Assembly: GCA_016206155.1 (NCBI GenBank)
Contig: JACQSC010000004.1
Coordinates: forward strand, 75,699 to 139,698
Origin: Candidatus Uhrbacteria bacterium
GTDB lineage: Bacteria; Patescibacteriota; Patescibacteriia; JACQRZ01
Direction of reading: 5' to 3'
Length of the DNA stretch: 64,000 nucleotides
A model generated the notes under the pieces. The model had not been told where the DNA came from and ran no database searches. It saw nothing but the letters and a program-made list of their open reading frames with translations. Shown here one piece after another: positions 36,112 to 54,592 of the stretch; position 1 is the first letter of the stretch; each line of letters starts with the position of its first letter. The position numbers and the translations under genes are program-made.

Positions 36112-36117
36112 GATAAA

Positions 36118-36222
36118 CTGGCACTGACCTACTTTCCCGCAGAGCAGTATCATCGGCGCTGAAGTGCTTAACGACCGAGTTCGGGATGGGATCGGGTGTT
36201 TCCACTTCGCTAAAAGCACCAG
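36118..36222 (-). rRNA. rrf: 5S ribosomal RNA (ends +/-5 nt)
   Basis: CUGGUGCUUUUAGCGAAGUGGAAACACCCGAUCCCAUCCCGAACUCGGUCGUUAAGCACUUCAGCGCCGAUGAUACUGCUCUGCGGGAAAGUAGGUCAGUGCCAG matches the bacterial 5S consensus. Confidence 0.85.
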
Positions 36223-36603
36223 AGAGATAGACCCCATTATCATGGGGCGCATGTCTCTGGAGGGCTTCAGATTTTATCTGAAGCCCTGCATATACAAAAG
36301 TCCTTATTATGGTCGAGATATATCGATCTATTAGTACGGCTCGGCTCAAAATCTTGCGATCCTTACACCTGCCGCCTATCAACCTCGTAATCTCCGAGGA
36401 ATCTTATAACGAAACCTAATCTTGAAGACGGCTTCACGCTTAGATGCTTTCAGCGTTTATCCGTGCCGAACGTAGCTACCCAGCGGTGCTCTTGGTAGAA
36501 CAACTGGTACACTAGAGGTTCGTTCATTGAGGTCCTCTCGTACTATCAATGAGCCTTCTCAAGTTTCAACGCCCACGGTGGATAGGAGACCGAACTGTCT
36601 CAC

Positions 36604-36812
36604 GCATGTTAATCCTTCTGTTTCCAGATGGCATGGACTATATCTTCACCCTTCAAAAAAATTCGAAGGGGCCAACGTGTAGTCTCTACGGACCCCCCGA
36701 TGGATATCGGGGTTGCCTCGGTATTCCCTTTGCCTAATGCTTTAGGGTTCACCGATATAGTTGGTGCTAGAACGATATTACTATCGCCAAACGCCGTATC
36801 GCAGATTGCGAT
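36604..36812 (-). mobile_element. group I intron, ORF-less, at the 23S site equivalent to E. coli 2593 (GAACGUC^GUGAGACAG)
   Basis: Exon sequence resumes exactly across the gap. The intron carries GAGACUACACG and AAGAUAUAGUCC group I core elements. Confidence 0.65.
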
Positions 36813-36846
<34 letters not shown>

Positions 36847-36873
36847 TGGCGAACAGCCAAACCCTTGGGAGCT

Positions 36874-37620
36874 CATTTCTGTTTTCCCGCATTACTGCGG
36901 ATATCAGACTATACCTTCACCATGGCATACCATGTTACCATGGTTGCTATAGGTGCGAACCGTATGATAAAAATTAATTTTATCGCATGATAATCTCCAA
37001 AAAAACTATCAATTAGTCGTTACGGGAGCTTCATTCTTTGATCATTATCGCATAGTTCCTCCGTCGACTTTTGGATCGAACGTTGAACGACGATAATGTA
37101 TCCGCCAACCGCGCAATATCGTACAGATTTTTTTTAGAACGAATATCTCTCTGCAAAATTGATTGTGCGATCACAATCTGTTTTTTCTTGCAGCGAGAAT
37201 ATGGTGCAATCTGTTGAAGGAACATGATTATTTCTTTTTGATCTCTCGCGACCCATTCATAGGTAGTGCGATTTGATCTGATATAACCAATTCCTGTCAC
37301 TGGAACTAACCACTCAACATCGTGCTTATGATATTGGGTTATCTTTACCGTAATGCGCACTCGAAAACCAAAACGCTTTTCGGCGTGTTTTTCAAGTGTC
37401 GCCATGATGGCACCGTCGCCATCTAAAAAACCTGCGATATATGCTCGGTCGACTTGGGAAAGAAGCTTTCCCACGGTATTAACCTTCATATACTCTCATT
37501 ATACCTGGGACCTGCGAAGTTGCAAGCCACCCGTTATAATGGAACCATCGAAGGCCTTCACCGTTTTGGGCTCGTTTATTACTCCGACGTTTCCGTCGGA
37601 GAGAGAAGGTAAATGGTTTT
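36874..37620 (-). mobile_element. group I intron at about E. coli 2535 region (CCUGGGGGUGGAG^AGCUCCCAAGG) carrying a LAGLIDADG ORF
   Basis: Exon identity is interrupted for about 750 nt, and the interruption contains ORF 37031..37489. Confidence 0.55.
37031..37489 (-). CDS. LAGLIDADG homing endonuclease (intron-encoded)
   Basis: IAGFLDGDGA motif, 152 aa. Confidence 0.85.
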   Translation of the reverse strand: MKVNTVGKLLSQVDRAYIAGFLDGDGAIMATLEKHAEKRFGFRVRITVKITQYHKHDVEWLVPVTGIGYIRSNRTTYEWVARDQKEIIMFLQQIAPYSRCKKKQIVIAQSILQRDIRSKKNLYDIARLADTLSSFNVRSKSRRRNYAIMIKE

Positions 37621-37652
37621 CTCCACCCCCAGGATGCGATGAGCCGACATCG

Positions 37653-38447
37653 TACATTCTTCTATTATTACTAATAGTGTGGACTATATCTTCTTCCTGC
37701 TTTAATCCGTGCAGGAGATGGCGTATTAGCCCTTCTTACATATAAGGGCTCTGATCGTTTCCGATCAAGTCTCTACGGGGTCATTACTCAATTTTATACT
37801 TCATGGAAGGAATCACGAATTTCGCGACTATCCCCTTCAGCGTGCGCACGCTTTCTTTCATAAACCTCACTCGATAGTAGGTCTTATCTTTATTCAAGCG
37901 CGCGTTCAGTCCCATATCCTTCAAGAATGCCAGCAGGGAGCTCTGGTCTGTCGGGGTAAATTGTTGAGTGTTCAAATAGAAGTCTGAATCTCTACATTTA
38001 CTTCCGTCATCCATAAACCATACCGCCAAACTTAATGGATTGAGTGTAATTGTGGGTACAACTTTCTTCCCCTCTTTATAAAAGAGGTTATAGAACTTGG
38101 TAATCTCTGGATGCTGCCGTGTGGTGAAGCGATATGCGATTCTTGAATTATTTCCTCTCCTTATTTTAGGACCGCTGGTAGAAATATTTTTCAGTATACT
38201 GTATTTCCAGTCAACGTATTCCTTCTGTATATACGAGTGATTAATTTCAAGAAGTACGTTTCGCCTTCCTTTCACAATGCGAGCGTATCCATCGCCAAGC
38301 AATGTACCTACTATTACGGATTTCTGAACTTGAGTAAGACTTCCCACGATATTGTCCATATGAGTATAGTATACCATATGGAGTTCATCGTTATAAGCCA
38401 TATTTTTGGTATGACATTACTGTCATAGCACCCCGATTTCGTCGTTA
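37653..38447 (-). mobile_element. group I intron at about E. coli 2500 (GGCACCU^CGAUGUCGG) carrying a LAGLIDADG ORF
   Basis: Exon breaks bracket ORF 37784..38401. Confidence 0.6.
37784..38401 (-). CDS. LAGLIDADG homing endonuclease, double-motif
   Basis: VGTLLGDGY and LAVWFMDDGS motifs, 205 aa. Confidence 0.85.
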   Translation of the reverse strand: MAYNDELHMVYYTHMDNIVGSLTQVQKSVIVGTLLGDGYARIVKGRRNVLLEINHSYIQKEYVDWKYSILKNISTSGPKIRRGNNSRIAYRFTTRQHPEITKFYNLFYKEGKKVVPTITLNPLSLAVWFMDDGSKCRDSDFYLNTQQFTPTDQSSLLAFLKDMGLNARLNKDKTYYRVRFMKESVRTLKGIVAKFVIPSMKYKIE

Positions 38448-38496
38448 AGGTGCCGAACCTTGCCGTCGCTGTGGACGCTTGGGCAAGACTAGCCTG

Positions 38497-39351
38497 TTCG
38501 TATTTTTTCTCTTATTCCTAAGAGTACTGACTATATCTTCATCCTCACATCACTCATGTGAGGAGTACGGCGTATTGGCCCGATATACTTCGGGCCCTCG
38601 TCCATAATGGACTTCAGTCGATACGGGGTTCTTCATCGATTTTATATCGCATACTTTGTATCATATGCGGAGCGATAATAGTACTAAGTTTTTTTGTTTC
38701 TGCTACAGAAAATTTGAGATTCATTGATCCATTTTTCTTCTTTTCGAGTTTCGGATGAAGGTCAAAATTTTCTTGAATCGCCCGTAAGAGTCGCCGCGTA
38801 TCGCGATCAGTATGTTTTGAGAGATAGATATACGCGGTCTTGTCGCGTTTATAATAATATCCATCATCCATATACCATACCGCCAATACAAGCGAATCTT
38901 TTAACAATCGACTTATACTTTCTGGAATCTGCTTTGCATGATCCTGATAAAAGATCATCCGCAGCTTTCCAAATTCTGACGATGAGTGTGATTGGCATCG
39001 AATAGAATAATAGAATTTTTTCCATGTTGGATGAAAGCGCGTGAGGATGCTCGGCTTTTGCATAAACCGACGCAACTCAGAAACCTTCCAAAGAAGGTAA
39101 TCCTTTTGCTGAAGCGAATGCTCCAGTCGAAGGCGCGCACTCTTTGTGCCAACACGTTGAATAAATCCATCACCCAGTACACATCCAATCACTATGTTTC
39201 GTTCACGTTGTGTCATAGTAGTTCTTGACAACGATGAAGAACTTCCCTCGGTATTACCCGTCCGATTGTCATCGGGTTTGGGCTTCACCGATATCAGCCG
39301 TTTTCGTGATCGAGCGTTGCCGCTCGATCGGGACAACAACCCTTTAAGGGT
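38497..39351 (-). mobile_element. group I intron at the E. coli 2449-equivalent site (GGGGAUA^CAGGCU, the I-SceI/omega site) carrying a LAGLIDADG ORF
   Basis: Exon breaks bracket ORF 38614..39216. Confidence 0.6.
38614..39216 (-). CDS. LAGLIDADG homing endonuclease, double-motif
   Basis: IGCVLGDGF and LAVWYMDDGY motifs. The start was set at the Met preceding the first motif; the track N-terminal extension lies in intron RNA. Confidence 0.8.
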   Translation of the reverse strand: MTQRERNIVIGCVLGDGFIQRVGTKSARLRLEHSLQQKDYLLWKVSELRRFMQKPSILTRFHPTWKKFYYSIRCQSHSSSEFGKLRMIFYQDHAKQIPESISRLLKDSLVLAVWYMDDGYYYKRDKTAYIYLSKHTDRDTRRLLRAIQENFDLHPKLEKKKNGSMNLKFSVAETKKLSTIIAPHMIQSMRYKIDEEPRID

Positions 39352-39540
39352 CTATCCCCGGAGTAGCTTTTATCCGTTGAGCTTCGACCATCCTATAATG
39401 GATCGTCGGATCACTAACTTCCGCTTTCGCGACTGCGCGACTTGTAGGTCTTGCAGTAAAGCTGGCTTTTGCGTTTGCACGTCTGCTTCCGTTTCCATCG
39501 GAAGTAAGCCAACCTTTGTAAACGCCTCCGTTACCTTTTA

Positions 39541-40499
39541 GGCATTGTGTTAATCTAACCCTTTAAGTTTATACAGCATGGCTTGATGTATGTATGGTCG
39601 CACGATTCGAGCAAAATCGTCAGCCGATTCGGCAAGAATCATGATCTGTAATCCATCTGTTTGCTTCCTCGCATGCGAGGAAAGCGCATAGCGCGATTTC
39701 AATGCATTCATCAATCGTTCGATGTCCTTTGCGTGAAAGGACTGTGTATTCAGGATTCGCGCTCTGTGATGTTTTGACTTTACCGATCCGTCATCCATAT
39801 ACCATACTGCGAGAGCAAGCGGAGTCAGCCATCGATGAATCAGTTTTGGCACTTTCTTCACTCCGTTTTTCTCATAGTACTGATGCGCATAGAAACGCAA
39901 TGCGCCATGACTGACGGTAGAGAACCCGTAGTTTACACTTCGGATTCCTTCACGTTTTTTTATTTTTTCTCTTGGGAGTGTCAGGATCCATTTTCGAAAT
40001 TCATCATAGAGCCAATCGACATATTCCTTTTGTTTGATCGAGTGTTCGATCTTCAAACGATATGTTCGACCGTTATTTTGCGTCTCGAGATGACCATCCC
40101 CCAACAGGAGCCCAAATAAAATTTCTTTTTGCCGTTTTGTCAGTGCCAATTGTTTCTTCGCGTCTTCAATAGTTCGTGAATACATACATCATGTATTTAG
40201 TTAGATCCTCAATCTGCGTCATAGGCGGTTGGTATGACACGTTTCTCCATGTTCATCGGAGTGATTGAAGTCTCAAGGTTTCCCTTGAGATCAGACTCTA
40301 TCATTCCGGTATATGCTACCGGACCGACGTAGAGTCGTTGAGGAGTCCCATTCTTCTTAGAAAACGGGTTCCCTGCTGATTGTCTGCCGACGTATGTCTT
40401 CTTCAAAACATTTTTACTAAGCAGTAGTTTTGAATTTTTGCAGATGTTCCAGCATATAGTCGGTTTTCCTTCGATTACTCGAAGGGCCCCATTGCGTTA
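39541..40499 (-). mobile_element. group I intron at about E. coli 2263 (GGUCGCCU^UAAAAGGUAACGGAGG) carrying a LAGLIDADG ORF
   Basis: Exon breaks bracket ORF 39550..40185. Shares CUAUAUGCUGGAA and CAAUCAGCAGGGAA core segments with the 1917-site intron. Confidence 0.55.
39550..40185 (-). CDS. LAGLIDADG homing endonuclease, double-motif
   Basis: FGLLLGDGH and LAVWYMDDGS motifs, 211 aa. Confidence 0.85.
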   Translation of the reverse strand: MYSRTIEDAKKQLALTKRQKEILFGLLLGDGHLETQNNGRTYRLKIEHSIKQKEYVDWLYDEFRKWILTLPREKIKKREGIRSVNYGFSTVSHGALRFYAHQYYEKNGVKKVPKLIHRWLTPLALAVWYMDDGSVKSKHHRARILNTQSFHAKDIERLMNALKSRYALSSHARKQTDGLQIMILAESADDFARIVRPYIHQAMLYKLKGLD

Positions 40500-40786
40500 A
40501 GGCGACCGCCCCAGTCAAACTACCCACCAGATACTGTCTCCCTTGCGGATAACGCAAGTAGATCAAGAATTACAAATGCACAAGGGTGGTGTCTCATTGT
40601 TCCCTTGCGGGTCCCACCTACACTGAACAGGTGCATCCATAATCCAATATCAAGTTGTAGTAAAGCTTCACGGGGTCTTTTCGTCCAGCCGTGGGAAAAG
40701 AGCATCTTCACTCCTCTTGCAATTTCGCCGGGTCCCTTGTTAAGACAGTTATTTAGTTGTTATGCCATTCGTGCAGGTCGGAACTC

Positions 40787-41518
40787 CACAGTTCATCATG
40801 TTGCCATAATGGCAGACTATACATTCATCTTCCTGTCATCCGTAGGAGACTCTCCATTGTATATCGCCTCGCTCCAAGACCATTCATCTGATAGGCGCGT
40901 GTGATGATTATTTTTAAACCATCGCTCGTTCTGTGTTGCCGCTTCAATACATTGGCACAGATTGATCGCCATGTCTCAAAGTCATGATACTTTGATGAGC
41001 GAAGGGGATACTGTTCGAAGTGTGGAATAATCTTTTCACAAAGATCGTTAATGTTTCGAACTTCATATTTGTATGTTCCGTCGTGGATATTGAATCGGAT
41101 TGTCCCGCATCCAAAGAAGTCTTTGAGGTCATCAAGAACCACTTTACTTCTTTGGTGCTGACTAATCGTGAAGCTTGGACGCGTTTCGACGCCAAGAAGA
41201 AATTTTTTCCGTATCGAAAATGATACGAGAAAACTTCCTTCACCATCAACAAACCCTGAAACATACCATGGATTGAGCTCCATAGATTGACTTATTTACT
41301 TAGGAAGAGTCGGCGTGTTACCTCTGCTCATTGCAGAAGTCTTCTCTTTCGAGGCAGTCGTTACGGGGTCAAGTCCGATTGACATCGGACCGACTTCCCA
41401 CGGTATTATCCATATATTATATCATAGTATGGACTTCACCGTTATGAGCCGATTTACATGTATCGCGTCACCACGATACTCGGGCAAGTTCTCTCCGACC
41501 AAGGAGGAACATGTGTTC
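40787..41518 (-). mobile_element. group I intron at the E. coli 1931-equivalent site (GUCGGGU^AGUUCCGACC) carrying a LAGLIDADG ORF
   Basis: The exon stops after GUCGGGU and resumes at GUUCCGACCUGCACGAAUGG. 235 nt of intron separate the exon end from the ORF ATG. Confidence 0.65.
40825..41283 (-). CDS. LAGLIDADG homing endonuclease, single-motif I-CreI-like
   Basis: YVSGFVDGEGSF motif, 152 aa. Confidence 0.85.
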   Translation of the reverse strand: MELNPWYVSGFVDGEGSFLVSFSIRKKFLLGVETRPSFTISQHQRSKVVLDDLKDFFGCGTIRFNIHDGTYKYEVRNINDLCEKIIPHFEQYPLRSSKYHDFETWRSICANVLKRQHRTSDGLKIIITRAYQMNGLGARRYTMESLLRMTGR

Positions 41519-41539
41519 ACCCGACAAGGAATTTCGCTA

Positions 41540-41797
41540 GCCGCTTCCTTTGTGCGACGAACTCTCTCTTCACCCATTTATACTATCATTATAGCATAAA
41601 TGGGGCACGGCGTAGAGTTTCTGGAGGGTCCGATTGACGTCGGACTTCCCTGCTGATTGCCCAAGGCATTTGGGTTTCCAGCATATAGCCATGTTTTGAC
41701 CATTTCCATATTACTATGGAATGAGGCAGCTTTTTCTATTTACCCATTCACTATAACGGTCCCAGTCCTTCTCGATTCCACCATTGTGAAATCGAGA
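41540..41797 (-). mobile_element. group I intron, ORF-less, at the E. coli 1917-equivalent site (GGUCCUAAGGU^AGCGAAAUUCC)
   Basis: About 255 nt separate perfectly conserved exon flanks; no ORF inside. Confidence 0.6.
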
Positions 41798-43570
41798 ACC
41801 TTAGGACCCTTATAGTTAGGGCCGGCGTTCATCAGCGCTTCAGTTCAAAGCATTCCAGATAAATCCAGTCAACTTCTCCCTTTAACGTTCTGACACTGGC
41901 CAGGCATCAGCCCCTATACATAGCCTTTCGGCTTAGCAGAGACCTATGTTTTTGGTAAACAGTCACTAAATAAACGTTAGCTGCGCCCGGCCTAAAGGCC
42001 GGGGAGGCATATCCCGAAGTTACGCCTAGCTTTTTTGCCGAGTTCCTAAACAAGGGTTCTCCCGTACACCTGAGTATACTCAACCCGTCCACCTGTGTCG
42101 GTTTGCGGTACGAGTGCTCACCAGTTAACTCGTGGGGTGCAGGAACTAATCCAGTATCGTTTGAGCGATATTGTTCTGTGTCCATATTCAAGGCGCGAGG
42201 AGCGACACGATGTAAATGCATCGTTAGCGATCTCGCAACACAGAATATGGCACAGAACAAATCGCCCGAAGGGAGACTAAAAAATGGCCGATTTTTTTGT
42301 TGCTCCTCCTCGAAGTACTACTCAGTACTCCTTTGTCGTCGCGCCTCGAAATCGTCTCATTTTTTAGCCTCTCAAGACAATGCTGGATTAGTTCCTGCAC
42401 CCCTGGGCTTTTCTAGGCTTCTCCGTCTCCCGGCTTGCAGAATATCGCTATTCCGCTCGATCCCATACCTTACGATATGGTCTGCGCGTATAACCAAAAC
42501 ACGCCCGGAACGTGGAAAAGCGTCCCCCATCGAAACTGATGAGCAGTTCAGGAATATTAACCTGATATCCATCGGCTACCCCTCATTAATCAAGGACTCA
42601 CCTTAGGATCGACTAACCCTGGGTCGATTTGCGTTGCCCAGGAATCCTTGGACTTTCGGTGTTGAAGGTTTTCACTTCAATTTTTGCTACTTATGCCAAC
42701 ATTCGCACTTCTGTACGCTCCACCATTTTTCACAAAACAGCTTCATCGCCTACAGAACGTTCCTCTACCGCCCAGGCCTAAAGGCCTGGGCCCATATCTT
42801 CGGTACCACGTTTGAGCCCCGATATATTTTCGGCGCGCGGCAACTGGACCAGTGAGCTATTACGCTTTCTTTAAATGATGGCTGCCTCTAAGCCAACATC
42901 CTGGTTGTATAAGTCGCGACACCACCTTTTACACTTAACGTGGATTTAGGGACCTTAGATGATGATCTGGGCTGTTCCCCTTTAGACGGACGGACCTTAG
43001 CGCCCATCGTCTGACTCCCGCTGTATAGCATTTCCAGTATTCGGAGTTTGGTTGGGGGCGGCAGGATTTCTCCACCCGACCCCATTCAGTGCTCTACCCC
43101 TGGATGCCACAACGAGGCTAGTCCAAAAACTATTTCGAGGAAAACAAGCTATTACCGAGTTCGATTGGAATTTCTCCCCTAACCTCAGCTCATCCCCATG
43201 CGTTGCACGACATGTGGGTTCGGGCCTCCTCCGACCTTTCGGACGGACTCACCCTGGCCAAGGCTAGCTCACCCGGTTTCGTGTCTTGTGCATGCTGCTT
43301 CTTGAGGGTGTAGGGTTCAGGGGTCAGGGTTTAGATTGCGGTGACCGCAACCCTCTACCCTTTACCCTAAACCCTTTACCCTCAAATGCGCCCCATTCAG
43401 ACTCGGTTTCCCTTCGCTTCCTCCGCTTCATGCGGATTAAACTTGCAACATACAGCAAACTCGTTGGCTCATTCTTCAATAGGAACGCCGTCACCCCCGG
43501 ATTACTCCGAAAGCTCCGACTCCTTGTAAGCACACGGTTTCAGATACTATTTCATCGGCCTCCCGGCCTG

Positions 43571-43610
<40 letters not shown>

Positions 43611-44637
43611 GTCAAAAGTGTTTAGCCTTACCAGATAGTCCTGGCGGATTCCCGCTCGCTTTCACGAGGCGCGCGGTACTTGGGAACACATACGACAGAT
43701 TGGAAGATTGTTTTTGCATACGGGGCTTTCACCCTCTTTGGCAGGCCTTCCCAGACCTTTCTCCTAACAATCCGCCGCTCTGCATGGTTGGATCAGCAAC
43801 CACATATATGCGTCCCGCTACCCCAAAAAAACCTATAGCCCGATCGCCTTCCCTCACAACTTGAAATCTTCCTTGCGGAAAAAACCTTATCATGAGTTAG
43901 AGTTTTCTTGGTTTTGGCTCTTCCCTTTTCGCTCGCCACTACTCGGGGAATAAACTCTTGTTCTCTTTTCCTCCGGCTACTGAGATGTTTCACTTCACCG
44001 GGTTGTCCCCCCGACGTACGTCGGGGTACCACGATCTTCCATCGTGGTGGGTTTCCCCATTCGGAAATCCTCGGATCACAGGTTGCTTGCCACCTTCCCG
44101 AGGCTTATCGCAGGCTGCTACGTCCTTCATCGTCTTTTGACGCCAAGGCATCCTCCGTGTGCCCTTAACTATATCTCGACCATAATCAAGACTTTTGCTC
44201 ATATCCGCCGCGCAAATACGGCAGTATGAACGTGTATACGTTTGAACTATGCTCTTTTCGTTTACTTTCTATTCAATTCAATTGTCAATGTGCGCTCTCT
44301 TTTTTAAGGAGAGTGGCGGGGGATTGAGCCTTTCTATCTCCCGTCACCATCCTCAAGCGTCAATTTTTTCTAAAGACAACAAAAAAACCGCCGGTAAGCG
44401 GTCTCATGAGGCGATTAGTCGTCTCGTTCAAGGCCCCTTACGTGTGCTTCTTTTTACTTTGTAGCAATCGAAACATTCGTTTTTAAGAGAAAATCGTTGA
44501 ACGAGACTGATGCGTCTCTCCTTGTTATTAAAACAAGTATTGCCATTATAGATGATAATAAAGGGATGTCAAGCCCCTATTTATAGGAAAAAATTTCCTC
44601 TGCTGTGCATGAAATGGGGATATTTTGGGGAAAAATA

Positions 44638-47616: not shown

Positions 47617-48342
47617 ATGCGTTTCCTCACTCAAAAGAAACTTTTTGTTATTAGTATCGTCATAATACTTGCGTTGCCAGAATTTGGGAATGCGCAATTG
47701 TCGTCCGATAGTTTCCGCGTGACATCTGATTCGGTCAACTGCGGCGGGGGGGGCAGTACATCAAACAGCTTTGCGATCTCCTCAACCATTTGCGAGCCCT
47801 CTGATGCGCGGACGCTTACCTCGACGAGCTTTGTTGCTGAATCGGGTTTCCAATATATGGAGGACACACCGTTCATCACCGTTTCCCTCCTTAACGCTGC
47901 GGGAAGCGCGGCAAAAAATTCGATCGCTTACGGTTCGATGACCCCGACGAGCGGAACAAAAAGTGACAGTATCCTTGTCAGGGTCACGACCAATGCCGCC
48001 AATGGATATGTTGGCTCAATACTCTCCGACGGTCTCCTTCGTACTGGGTCAAGCTCCATCGATTTTTCAATCCAAAACGTTGCGGATGGGTCGGTCGACG
48101 GGTCGGCAAACGGTTCTCCATCAGGGGAATCGGGCTTTTCGGTCTCAAGCTCTGATACCACAAATTGCACCCGCCCTTCCGGCGACCAGGGAATTGTGAC
48201 AAGCGGGACGCCATTCGCCACCTGCACCACATGGAAAACCCAATCCGACAACACACTCACTTTCAAAGCCGCTGTTTCGTCCAATAACTTGTCCGGGTCG
48301 TATTCTCAAAACCTTACAATTGTCGTTACAGGATCCTTTTGA
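47617..48342 (+). CDS. secreted Ser/Thr-rich hypothetical protein
   Basis: Signal peptide (ILALPEFGNA), 241 aa. Confidence 0.55.
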   Translation: MRFLTQKKLFVISIVIILALPEFGNAQLSSDSFRVTSDSVNCGGGGSTSNSFAISSTICEPSDARTLTSTSFVAESGFQYMEDTPFITVSLLNAAGSAAKNSIAYGSMTPTSGTKSDSILVRVTTNAANGYVGSILSDGLLRTGSSSIDFSIQNVADGSVDGSANGSPSGESGFSVSSSDTTNCTRPSGDQGIVTSGTPFATCTTWKTQSDNTLTFKAAVSSNNLSGSYSQNLTIVVTGSF

Positions 48343-51966: not shown

Positions 51967-53034
51967 TCAAAAACGTCCGCCGCTTTGCATTTCTTTAATA
52001 TGCCGCTTAAGACTGCACGCATTGCAATGATTGAGCGTGCTAAGATAGGATTGAATCGCGCTGCGCACATACGGCTCCTTCACAACTCCGGCTTTTTGTC
52101 CTTCGACCATGTGGGCGATCTTTTTCAGCACTCTCTTCTTCGTTCGTACACGAAGCACAACGTGGCATGGAAAAAGAACATAGCCAAGAAAGTCGATTCC
52201 ATGAGAAAACTTTCTCACATGTACCTTGCTTGGGTGTAACTCGAGACGAAGACGATCATCTATAAACGTGTTGATGGATGATATGAATCCAACAAGCTGC
52301 TTTTTATCATGACTTACTACCACAAAATCATCGCAATAACGAACATAGTTTGGTGCCTTAAGACTATGCTTCATGAACACGTCAAGCTCATTGAGATAGA
52401 TGTTGGCAAACAATTGGCTTGTCACATTACCGAGTGGTATGCCTTTTCCTCTTTGTCCTGCAAAACTACCGATGATTGCTTGGAGCAAGGAAAGAGTTCG
52501 CTCGTCTTTAATATGCCGCTTCAAGAGCTTCAAAAGTATTGAATGATCAACCGAATCAAAAAACCTTCGTATATCACATTTCAAAACATAGGGTATCCGC
52601 GTATTATTTTTTCCTTCCTTTCTTAAAAATACTTGCAGTCGCCGTATCGCTCGATGCGCGCCCTTACCCACGCGGCAAGAATAGGAATCAAAGATAAACG
52701 ATCGGTCAAACATTGGATACAGCGTCCGAAAAACAGCGTGATGCACAACCCTATCGCGAACAGACGCTTTATGGATATGGCGCACCTTTGGATCAACAAC
52801 GAAAAATGACGTATACTGTCCATGACGATAAGCACCTCGAACAAGCTCTTGATGGAGCGAGAAAATAGTATCCTCCAGATGGAGATCGCGGACATGTATT
52901 TCGCCTCTACTCCATTTCCCTCGCACAAATTCACGCCACGCGATAAAAAGATTTTCAAGACTTACTATCTCATCAAATAACCTATGAGTATTACCCCCCC
53001 CCCCAACGATTTCGGAACTGTTCCGGTTATTCAT
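51967..53034 (-). CDS. diversity-generating retroelement reverse transcriptase
   Basis: RT motifs YVLKCDIRRFFDSVDH, IPLGNVTSQLFANIYLNELD (the DGR-type SQ motif, in place of the group II QG...SP) and YVRYCDDFVVV (YxDD). Size 355 aa is typical of DGR RTs. Confidence 0.85.
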   Translation of the reverse strand: MNNRNSSEIVGGGGNTHRLFDEIVSLENLFIAWREFVRGKWSRGEIHVRDLHLEDTIFSLHQELVRGAYRHGQYTSFFVVDPKVRHIHKASVRDRVVHHAVFRTLYPMFDRSFIFDSYSCRVGKGAHRAIRRLQVFLRKEGKNNTRIPYVLKCDIRRFFDSVDHSILLKLLKRHIKDERTLSLLQAIIGSFAGQRGKGIPLGNVTSQLFANIYLNELDVFMKHSLKAPNYVRYCDDFVVVSHDKKQLVGFISSINTFIDDRLRLELHPSKVHVRKFSHGIDFLGYVLFPCHVVLRVRTKKRVLKKIAHMVEGQKAGVVKEPYVRSAIQSYLSTLNHCNACSLKRHIKEMQSGGRF

Positions 53035-53349
53035 AAAGCATCGGAATGGTATAAAGCCATTTATACATTCTCCTCAAAAATATCGAAAAAAGATCGCTTT
53101 GGTATTTATCTGAAAATTGAACACGGGGCGCTCGAACTGATCGACCTTCTTCTTGTCGCCGCGTTAGAAGACAAAGATAAAAAATATCTTCCCCTCCGTA
53201 ACGCGCGCCTCAAAACAGAATCATTAAAGCGGCTTATAAGAATCTGTTATGAAATAGGAGTCGTAGACCTCAAACACTATATCAACTTTGAATACCCACT
53301 TCAAGAAATATCGAAAATGATCAATGGTTGGATAAAATATCTCCGATAG
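52984..53349 (+). CDS. DGR accessory variability determinant (Avd; four-helix-bundle family)
   Basis: 121 aa with the KDRFG...L..A......KM.NGWIK pattern of Avd/TIGR02436. Encoded divergently, with 51 nt of its start region overlapping the RT start region. Confidence 0.7.
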   Translation: MSITPPPNDFGTVPVIHKASEWYKAIYTFSSKISKKDRFGIYLKIEHGALELIDLLLVAALEDKDKKYLPLRNARLKTESLKRLIRICYEIGVVDLKHYINFEYPLQEISKMINGWIKYLR

Positions 53350-53380
53350 CAAAAGAGCTCCGCGCGGAGCTCTTTCATAT

Positions 53381-53512
53381 CAAGGAGATTGCCTGGCGAG
53401 CGCGCAGATTCTCGTTCGCATTACCGGGGTTGTTCCAGTTGACGTTGAGCTTGCCGTCACTGTTCGTGTTCACGTTCGGAACATTACCGTCGCTATTGCG
53501 CGACCCAGCACA
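53381..53512 (-). repeat. DGR template repeat (TR)
   Basis: 132 nt matching the VR except at 21 positions. On the minus strand every differing TR base is an adenine. In the VR frame it is rich in AAC/AAT codons. Confidence 0.85.
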
Positions 53513-53741
53513 TGATGCATGATTCCATCCGCTATCACCGGCTGTTCTTTTTCAAAAACACCTGTGTTCTCCAAACATCTGTCTGGATTTTTTTACAAAG
53601 CATCGCGAGTTTTGTGCTCGCAAACCTTCCGTAAAATCATGCACGCAGTTTCCTTGATAACCGTAGGGCAAATCGCTATCCTGGATTGGACCGATTGTAT
53701 AAGCCATAGTGTAATGGTATACAAGCAAGAATAAAAAGCAA

Positions 53742-53769
53742 GAGACCCGAGCGTAAAACGTCGGGTCTC
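53742..53769 (-). other. GC-rich hairpin 3' of the VR (DGR hairpin/cruciform candidate), followed by a second hairpin at about 53777-53808
   Basis: GAGACCCGACGTTTTACGCTCGGGTCTC, about 55 nt beyond the target stop. Confidence 0.5.
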
Positions 53770-53821
53770 GATAGAAGTTCTTGCGCTCGCCTCCACGAAC
53801 GCAAGAAAAAAGGGGAAAGGG

Positions 53822-54592
53822 TTACAAGGAAACTGCCTGGCGAGCGCGCAGATGCACGAGCGCATCACCGGGGCGGATCCAGTGGACGCGGAGCTTGCCG
53901 TCACTGCGCGTGTCCACGCTCGGAACATTACCGTCGCTAAGGCGCGACCCAGCACACAACGTAACGTTCACCACGTCGAGGCGCTTCCCGGTTTCCCGAA
54001 AAAACGCCAAGTTGTGGATCAGGCACTCGAGTAGAGTTTCGGTCGTGATGCCGCGTTCGGCAATTTGATCCGCCGACGTGTTCTTGAGCTCCTCGTCGGC
54101 TTCAGCCCCATCACGCACCCAGATCGCGTAGGACCCATTTGAGGTGTCCCGTTCGTTCTGAATGATGACCTCGTCAAGAGATGTCTCCGTGTACTTCCAC
54201 GACCCGAACGCGGTCTTGCACTGCTGGTACGCCCCTTCAATCGTGACACCACTGGCGATCACGAGGAGCCGCCATTTGCCCTGATCGGGCTGTGGCGGGA
54301 TATTCTTCTCAGCCAGATTCACTGCGAGTCCGAATTCCTTTTCGTAAAACTCGCCCCACGGATCAAGAAGAGTTGGACTCCTCAGAAACCGCGCCATCAT
54401 GGCACGGGTGATCCTTCCGGCATCGCTCTGAGCGATTAGCTCAGCGATTTGTCCGGTCGTGATCTTCGCCATTTTTTCATCTCCTTCACCAATCCGGTAA
54501 TAAGGAAAGACATCGCGCGCTAACGCAACATCCGCTTCCGTAAACCGAAAAGGCAAACACGGCCAGAATCCCTGCTCCAGCCTTGTAACCAA
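53822..54592 (-). CDS. DGR target protein; variable C-terminal approx. 40 aa encoded by the VR
   Basis: 256 aa. The C-terminus ...CAGSRLSDGNVPSVDTRSDGKLRVHWIRPGDALVHLRARQAVSL is encoded by the VR up to the stop codon. The N-terminus may begin at an internal Met. Confidence 0.7.
   Translation of the reverse strand: MVTRLEQGFWPCLPFRFTEADVALARDVFPYYRIGEGDEKMAKITTGQIAELIAQSDAGRITRAMMARFLRSPTLLDPWGEFYEKEFGLAVNLAEKNIPPQPDQGKWRLLVIASGVTIEGAYQQCKTAFGSWKYTETSLDEVIIQNERDTSNGSYAIWVRDGAEADEELKNTSADQIAERGITTETLLECLIHNLAFFRETGKRLDVVNVTLCAGSRLSDGNVPSVDTRSDGKLRVHWIRPGDALVHLRARQAVSL
53825..53956 (-). repeat. DGR variable repeat (VR), ends at the target stop codon
   Basis: See TR. Substitutions occur only at TR adenine positions, except in the last 10 nt (IMH-like region). 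Confidence 0.85.

Follow-up and report, generated by a model that had tools for sequence, protein, structure and literature searches.

The DNA examined here is a 64-kb stretch of contig JACQSC010000004.1 (positions 75,699 to 139,698; hereafter the window) from Candidatus Uhrbacteria, a lineage of the candidate phyla radiation (CPR; Patescibacteria), in which positions 51967 to 54592 were found to carry the parts of a diversity-generating retroelement (DGR). When read along the minus strand, the locus consists of a target open reading frame (ORF; 54592-53822) that ends in the variable repeat (VR), a 309-nt noncoding spacer, a 132-nt template repeat (TR), and then the ORF of a reverse transcriptase (RT; 53034-51967). 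The gene of the accessory protein Avd is placed between the TR and the RT on the plus strand, with its first 51 nt overlapping the first 51 nt of the RT ORF. The DGR is flanked by FolD and a tRNA at one end and by DNA polymerase I at the other; because of these neighbors, the element was judged to be chromosomal and not obviously part of a prophage. The initial annotation of this region had proposed a complete DGR, and each of the tests run on the window supported this proposal. We regard the region as an intact chromosomal DGR of the CPR type, with the gene order known as Architecture B3, and on the sequence evidence assign this reading a probability of about 0.93.

Components and layout of the retroelement

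The RT gene (51967-53034, minus strand) encodes a protein of 355 aa from an ATG start at 53034, and the LGNVTSQ and YCDDF motifs attributed to this ORF were found as claimed. The protein matched the RVT_1 profile at an E-value of 1.7e-20. Its best match among solved structures was 8ub7_A (328 aa, E-value 1.5e-47), a chain deposited only as "Reverse transcriptase" that we take, from its length, to be the Bordetella phage bRT; a group II intron RT was a weaker match among these structures (E-value 6.7e-25). Homologues of the RT extend across the N-terminal region 'GGG..H.IFE.IISLENLF', and the 319-aa NCBI annotation, which begins at GTG codon 37, appears to cut off this conserved region, the shorter start presumably having been chosen to avoid the overlap with avd.

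The avd gene (52984-53349, plus strand) encodes 121 aa and, as had been described, is opposite in strand to the RT with a divergent overlap of the two starts that amounts to 51 nt. The product matched two Avd families over the full length of each model, namely, PF22296 bAvd (E-value 4.6e-9) and NF033474 DivGenRetAVD (E-value 5.8e-12), in both cases under the curated cut-off. Comparison with PDB sequences gave no true match, only chance matches to ankyrins, and the AlphaFold model built from the single sequence was unusable (predicted local distance difference test score, pLDDT, of 39). Membership of this ORF in the Avd family is thus considered likely rather than proven, since the profile scores fall under the cut-offs and structure prediction failed.

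The layout of the element was compared with that of 80 related loci, defined by RT homologues at 45-57% identity and nearly all labeled as CPR or as unclassified metagenome-assembled genomes (MAGs). An avd homologue opposite in strand and directly upstream of the RT, as in the window, was present in 72 of the 80 loci, and the divergent overlap of the avd and RT 5′ ends was conserved among these relatives (median 51 nt). The arrangement of target/VR, spacer, and TR with adenine-biased mismatches was found in 66 loci; the VR lies upstream of the TR in 64 of these 66, giving the order target/VR, spacer of approximately 160-620 nt (median about 285), TR, reversed avd, and RT. Wu et al. (2018, PMC5758913) give the name Architecture B3 to the order TR-(avd)-RT in which avd is encoded on the reverse strand and attribute it to 90% of their CPR collection, and in Roux et al. 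(2021, PMC8144416), DGR clade 2 is characterized as cellular, restricted to Patescibacteria, and associated with targets that have no recognizable domains. The window element, in which avd stands between TR and RT on the opposite strand and whose host belongs to the CPR, has Architecture B3, and it plausibly falls within clade 2 in view of its host phylum and its cellular, domain-less target. It shares with the CPR DGRs of these two descriptions (i) the gene order and orientation; (ii) the host phylum and a chromosomal site between housekeeping genes; and (iii) a small cellular target without recognizable domains or transmembrane segments; no architectural difference was found. Thus, the orientation of avd and the position of the TR, which the initial annotation had called unusual, follow the documented norm for CPR DGRs, and the window element is a new example of a catalogued class. 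Variations on the layout were also observed among the relatives: two VR-bearing targets around the cassette, or a target 3′ of the RT, in L047 (3444-3564 and 5704-5826) and L015 (5769-5880); a second avd-like ORF with a second adenine-biased repeat pair a few kilobases away in L021 (7650-8634); and an AbiEii-family gene directly 3′ of the DGR RT in L121 (2420-3587).

The TR (53381-53512) and the VR (53825-53956), both on the minus strand, were recovered as the 132-nt direct repeat that had been reported, with 86% identity. On recount, the alignment of the sense strands gave 19 mismatches in place of the 21 originally listed, and 18 of these fall on TR adenines. Given 35 adenines in 132 nt, the probability of at least 18 of 19 mismatches on A is 6e-10. 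The assertion that the differences fall exclusively on TR adenines holds for these 18 positions and is not strictly true overall, because of a single C-to-T mismatch at window position 53387, which on the sense strand lies 7 nt short of where the repeat ends at its 3′ side. In agreement with the earlier description, the TR is rich in AAC/AAT (AAY) codons when read in the VR frame, with 12 of 44 codons of this type, and 11 of these 12 are altered in the VR. The VR forms the final 44 codons of the target gene and ends exactly at its stop codon, as had been stated. Its 3′ end is GC-rich (CTGCGCGCTCGCCAGGC...) and resembles an initiation of mutagenic homing (IMH) sequence; together with the non-A difference 7 nt from the repeat end, this GC-rich end would mark a 3′ boundary of the IMH type. 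No further VR copies were found within the 64-kb window. Immediately 3′ of the VR and stop codon, the two strong hairpins previously noted were found at 53778-53807 and 53742-53769 (53742-53807 in all, minus strand); both are GC-rich, and the 96-nt stretch was predicted to fold at -39.3 kcal/mol. Among the related loci, the 90 nt located 3′ of the VR fold at -20 kcal/mol or lower in 56 of 66 cases compared with 222 of 660 controls.

These repeats bear on the question of whether the region is a DGR at all, or whether a group II intron or retron-type RT happens to stand beside an ordinary duplicated segment. The latter would agree with the NCBI naming of the gene and with the identity of the top NCBIfam match, which is a group II RT model; however, this match reached only 149 bits against a cut-off of 300, and the NCBIfam models for group II RTs, retrons, and defense-associated RTs (DRTs) all scored far under their cut-offs. 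The best structural relative (8ub7_A) is instead the chain taken to be bRT, no group II intron RNA was matched at the DGR by Rfam, which did find group I introns elsewhere in the window, the mismatch spectrum is adenine-specific, and a probable Avd, an IMH-like end, and hairpins are all present. We consider this explanation highly improbable, and the comparisons place the window RT in the DGR lineage rather than with group II intron, retron, or DRT enzymes.

The target gene (53822-54592, minus strand) has a longest ORF of 256 aa. Translation probably begins at the ATG at 54472, preceded by AAGGAG, to give a protein of 216 aa, rather than at the TTG of the longest ORF or at the start of a 244-aa call; residues 1-40 of the long ORF were modeled with low confidence. 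An AlphaFold model based on an alignment of 56 sequences (pLDDT 81) has a helical part at the N-terminus and a separate domain at the C-terminus. The latter is predicted to be C-type-lectin/formylglycine-generating-enzyme (CLec/FGE)-like, a fold that the model shares with TvpA and Mtd, and to carry the VR, so that the VR would lie inside a protein-coding target at the C-terminus of a C-type-lectin-like fold. Homologues of the target numbered at least 150, all of them unnamed and without Pfam domains, and the few with taxon labels were almost all CPR. The target sequence itself gave no match in PDB, Pfam, or NCBIfam. When compared with TvpA of Treponema denticola and other CLec-fold variable proteins of DGRs, the window target was found to differ in having (i) no detectable sequence similarity to them; (ii) no lipoprotein or signal sequence, there being no obvious signal-peptide-like hydrophobic N-terminus as judged by eye only, without a predictor; and (iii) an N-terminal helical domain that is unique to the CPR family. 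With the DGR of Bordetella phage BPP-1 (mtd-avd-TR-brt), the window element shares a closely related RT, a probable Avd, adenine mutagenesis, a VR at the C-terminus of a protein with a predicted CLec fold, a GC-rich IMH-like end with downstream hairpins, and a stem-loop right after the TR, but it is cellular rather than phage-borne and its avd is inverted.

The homopolymer tract in the avd/RT overlap

Within the avd/RT overlap, an 11-nt poly(C) tract was identified on the plus strand (52994-53004), which is poly(G) on the RT strand. Translated, the tract gives PPP for Avd and GGGG for RT, with the codons of both genes in one register, and it is in frame for both in the window. A gain or loss of 1 or 2 nt in this tract was found to cut Avd to 16-43 aa and RT to 13-23 aa, and no alternative start was present in the first 50 codons of Avd. 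The homopolymer is thus predicted to set the reading frame of the coding sequence in which it lies, as in a homopolymer contingency locus. Apart from this tract, the 64 kb contained one G/C homopolymer of 8 nt or more, a G8 run at 47746-47753.

A G run of at least 7 nt was detected at the same site in about three quarters of the related loci. When all G/C runs of 8 nt or longer were counted in 612 kb of sequence from these loci, 64 of the 68 were the avd/RT tract. The tract is bracketed by two anchors: the RT ATG, which is the antisense of a conserved His codon of Avd on one side, and the Avd ATG, which is the antisense of a conserved His codon of RT on the opposite side; these were present in 57 and 60 of the 61 tract-bearing loci, respectively. 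Both genes were in frame with their anchor ATGs in 22 of the 61 loci, and the other two registers accounted for 28 and 11. By comparison, all 12 loci in which the run is absent or interrupted were in frame (Fisher p = 3e-5). In the tract-less L045, L048, L073, and L076, the start codon of avd shares 2 nt with that of RT, a palindromic CATG being seen in L045 and L076, and in L015, L022, and L044, the G run is interrupted; all seven were in frame. The out-of-frame loci were not decayed, as their RT bodies and TR/VR pairs were intact, and the frame state appeared random among species.

Variation of tract length was also examined within lineages. In Wildermuthbacteria (L002 and L104-L113), independent assemblies had G9 in eight cases, G10 in two, and G11 in one, and two proteins from the same 90% cluster imply G12; the contigs are 99.3-99.9% identical, and apart from the VR they show no indels over 3.3 kb other than those in the tract. 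The organism of L087-L100 displayed G9 in at least 13 contigs and G10 in one, while that of L114-L120 displayed G10 in DNA, with G9 and G12 implied by cluster mates. No tract variation was observed for P0012, whose locus is tract-less, or for P0113 and P0101, whose contigs were identical. Tract-length polymorphism within a lineage is therefore apparent in the relatives, not in the window organism. In one MAG (L030, 1800-2002), runs of G13, C15, and G11 were found within 200 nt at the avd/RT junction, which may be either an assembly artefact at a homopolymer or an expanded tract region.

Phase variation by poly-G/C tracts is known in Campylobacter, Neisseria, Haemophilus, and the fim genes of Bordetella. 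The DGR tract resembles such homopolymer contingency loci in being an uninterrupted G/C run (7-13 nt) that lies within 5′ coding sequence, with length polymorphism in natural populations and on/off consequences for the reading frame. It differs in that the tract is common to two divergent overlapping genes, so that a single slip hits both, and in that it would control a mutator system rather than a surface antigen.

Some of these data are open to a more prosaic explanation, according to which the tract is not a regulatory switch: the length differences would be sequencing or assembly errors, or the purity of the run would be a by-product of dual coding, with translation starting elsewhere. Homopolymers of 9-13 nt are error-prone, and the coding of Gly-Gly-Gly and Pro-Pro-Pro in the same register forces GGG/CCC and could alone keep the run pure. 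Alternative starts were called by gene callers in some loci, and in one organism the VR was found to turn over although each contig read has an out-of-frame tract (G9 or G10), with TTG starts located nearby; in this organism, the proteins must then come from in-frame cells in the minority, from slippage as the genes are expressed, or from alternative starts. Nonetheless, nearly all of the assemblies are Illumina-based (SPAdes or MEGAHIT names), and the consensus calls are reproducible, G9 having been read in 13 or more contigs from one organism and G10 in 7 from a second. The occurrence of three lengths in Wildermuthbacteria as the sole non-VR indels also speaks against this explanation, as does the contrast in frame state between loci with and without the tract, and at least 20 out-of-frame loci have no ATG, GTG, or TTG before the conserved RT N-terminus. 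We rate the error or by-product explanation as a serious one, slightly short of an even chance. We read the tract as hypermutable and, from the comparison of these loci, as one that would most likely phase-vary avd and RT together.

RNA elements around the template repeat

A perfect stem-loop with a 10-bp stem and a GCGC loop was identified 3′ of the TR (53352-53375, minus strand), 5 nt past the TR and 2 nt past the avd stop codon. Strong stem-loops directly after the TR were common to 62 of the 66 related loci, with a median of -18.8 kcal/mol compared with -10.6 kcal/mol in controls. For 207 of 278 DGRs, an Avd-binding stem-loop just 3′ of the TR has been reported (Handa et al. 2024, bioRxiv 10.1101/2023.10.23.563531), and by analogy, the window stem-loop is a candidate Avd-binding element and/or a bidirectional terminator shared with avd. 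A scan for promoters and terminators gave nothing above shuffled expectation.

On the other side of the TR, directly 5′ of it, a structured RNA supported by covariation was found (53502-53698, minus strand). This leader includes a stem, P1 (53696-53692 paired with 53675-53671), located upstream of an 8-nt motif, GAAACUGC (53652-53645), of which GAAACU was invariant in 30 aligned loci. The motif is followed, after 0-3 nt in the clade, by a 12-bp long-range helix (53644-53633 paired with 53526-53515) that ends 2 nt before the TR and encloses hairpins and a conserved GGUGA, the latter coming after the hairpin at 53562-53540. GAAACU was enriched in the spacers, with a density of 1.9 per kb compared with 0.32 per kb elsewhere. 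In the alignment of 30 loci (A3), 91.6% of cells were paired in the leader fold, a figure that fell to 71% on shuffling and to 51% or less on sliding the partners; the covariation score was 0.685, compared with 0.27 for shuffled alignments and at most 0.17 when partners were slid; and compensatory changes were detected at 22 of 26 pairs. A covariance model of the leader (R1) was then matched 57 times in 696 kb, at most once per source and always on the RT strand, with approximately 26 of the matched loci lying outside the seed alignment. Those matches that were compared with mapped TRs ended at the TR start. The window contained a single match, at 112.9 bits. No Rfam family matched the leader RNA.

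Most TRs terminate in a GUUUC located immediately 3′ of their final mutagenized adenines, and the GAAAC of the motif is the complement of this sequence. The pairing is shifted in the window, where UAUCAAGG pairs with CCUUGAUA and 15 of 18 pairs are formed overall; the minimum-free-energy fold of the 401-nt region also predicts this UAUCAAGG/CCUUGAUA pairing. When the spacers were tested for an element complementary to the 3′ end of the TR, only 7 of the 66 loci gave p ≤ 0.05 relative to shuffled sequences, and the leader RNA was instead defined by the motif and covariation analysis. The 15-18-nt inverted copy of the VR/TR end present here had also been considered as the remnant of a plus-strand VR, in ORF 53519-53734. 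The copy is now read as the primer-like strand of the leader RNA, and the ORF is regarded as spurious.

For BPP-1, it is the region termed Sp, located 3′ of the TR, that is described as holding the primer and stop-duplex strands and the elements bound by the RT, and the cryo-EM structure of the bRT-Avd-RNA complex is of this Bordetella phage system (Handa et al. 2024, bioRxiv 10.1101/2023.10.23.563531). The core that the window RNA appears to share with the BPP-1 ribonucleoprotein consists of a primer-like strand, a linker of 0-3 nt, and a duplex whose partner strand abuts the 5′ edge of the TR. In the window, however, the putative equivalents are positioned 5′ of the TR, and the 3′ flank holds the stem-loop only. 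Because the primer-like and duplex strands are 5′ of the TR here and 3′ of it in the Bordetella phage, we propose that the RNA of B3-type DGRs may be circularly permuted relative to that of BPP-1.

Activity and implications

By analogy with the Bordetella phage paradigm, the minus strand would be transcribed through the structured leader and the TR, and Avd and RT would bind this RNA and copy the TR to cDNA with misincorporation opposite adenines. With the GC-rich IMH-like end and the hairpins that follow it as guides, this cDNA would then be substituted for the VR in the 3′-terminal part of the target gene, such that about 12 Asn codons would be recoded in the ligand-binding face of the C-type-lectin-like domain. 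What the sequences display directly is a full set of intact parts, an adenine-specific footprint in the VR, and, in relatives of the same architecture, VR alleles that differ between samples; the RNA and cDNA steps, present activity in the window organism, and the function of the target are inferred. In two relatives, contigs taken from different samples were at least 99.3% identical and differed for the most part in the VR. In the L087 group, three VR alleles were recovered from several Joint Genome Institute (JGI) metagenomes, with 26 variable columns of which 23 correspond to TR adenines, and ten contigs of the Wildermuthbacteria locus differed almost only in the VR.

An alternative reading is that of a silent fossil, in which the VR was diversified in the past and is no longer. 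Only a single VR allele is visible, from one contig, and the avd/RT homopolymer is a frameshift hot spot, with 39 of the 61 tract-bearing relatives out of frame. Counter to this, all ORFs of the window element are intact and in frame across the homopolymer, the TR retains its 35 adenines and 12 AAY codons, and the RNA elements fit the clade model well, as judged by the R1 score. Furthermore, relatives turn over their VR between samples even when their consensus is out of frame. We therefore consider a fossil unlikely, and the window DGR to be genuine and apparently functional.

As one more case of a well-catalogued class, the DGR itself matters little alone. The tract and the leader RNA bear on how DGR activity is regulated and on how template RNA is recognized beyond the single phage system studied. 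Both are properties of the CPR DGR clade, and in the literature searched, which did not cover the CPR DGR paper of Paul et al. 2017, no report of a DGR-linked homopolymer tract and no mention of a structured RNA 5′ of the TR was found. We tentatively suggest, as a proposal somewhat likelier to fail than to hold, that CPR-type DGRs carry two undescribed layers of control: (i) a poly(G/C) tract that switches avd and RT, and hence hypermutation; and (ii) a permuted DGR RNA with the primer strand GAAACUGC, a stop duplex, and RT-binding hairpins 5′ of the TR. If so, joint toggling of Avd and RT by a homopolymer would turn mutagenesis itself into a bet-hedging trait. An RNA core that is permuted yet recognizably homologous would in turn offer a second, independent test of the cis-priming/stop-duplex model as well as a covariance model for locating TRs in CPR genomes.

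Elsewhere in the window, the 23S rRNA gene (36116-44175, minus strand) was found to be split by at least three group I introns and by long ORF-containing insertions, with the 5S gene located downstream; 23S rRNA genes broken by introns and insertions are typical of CPR genomes.

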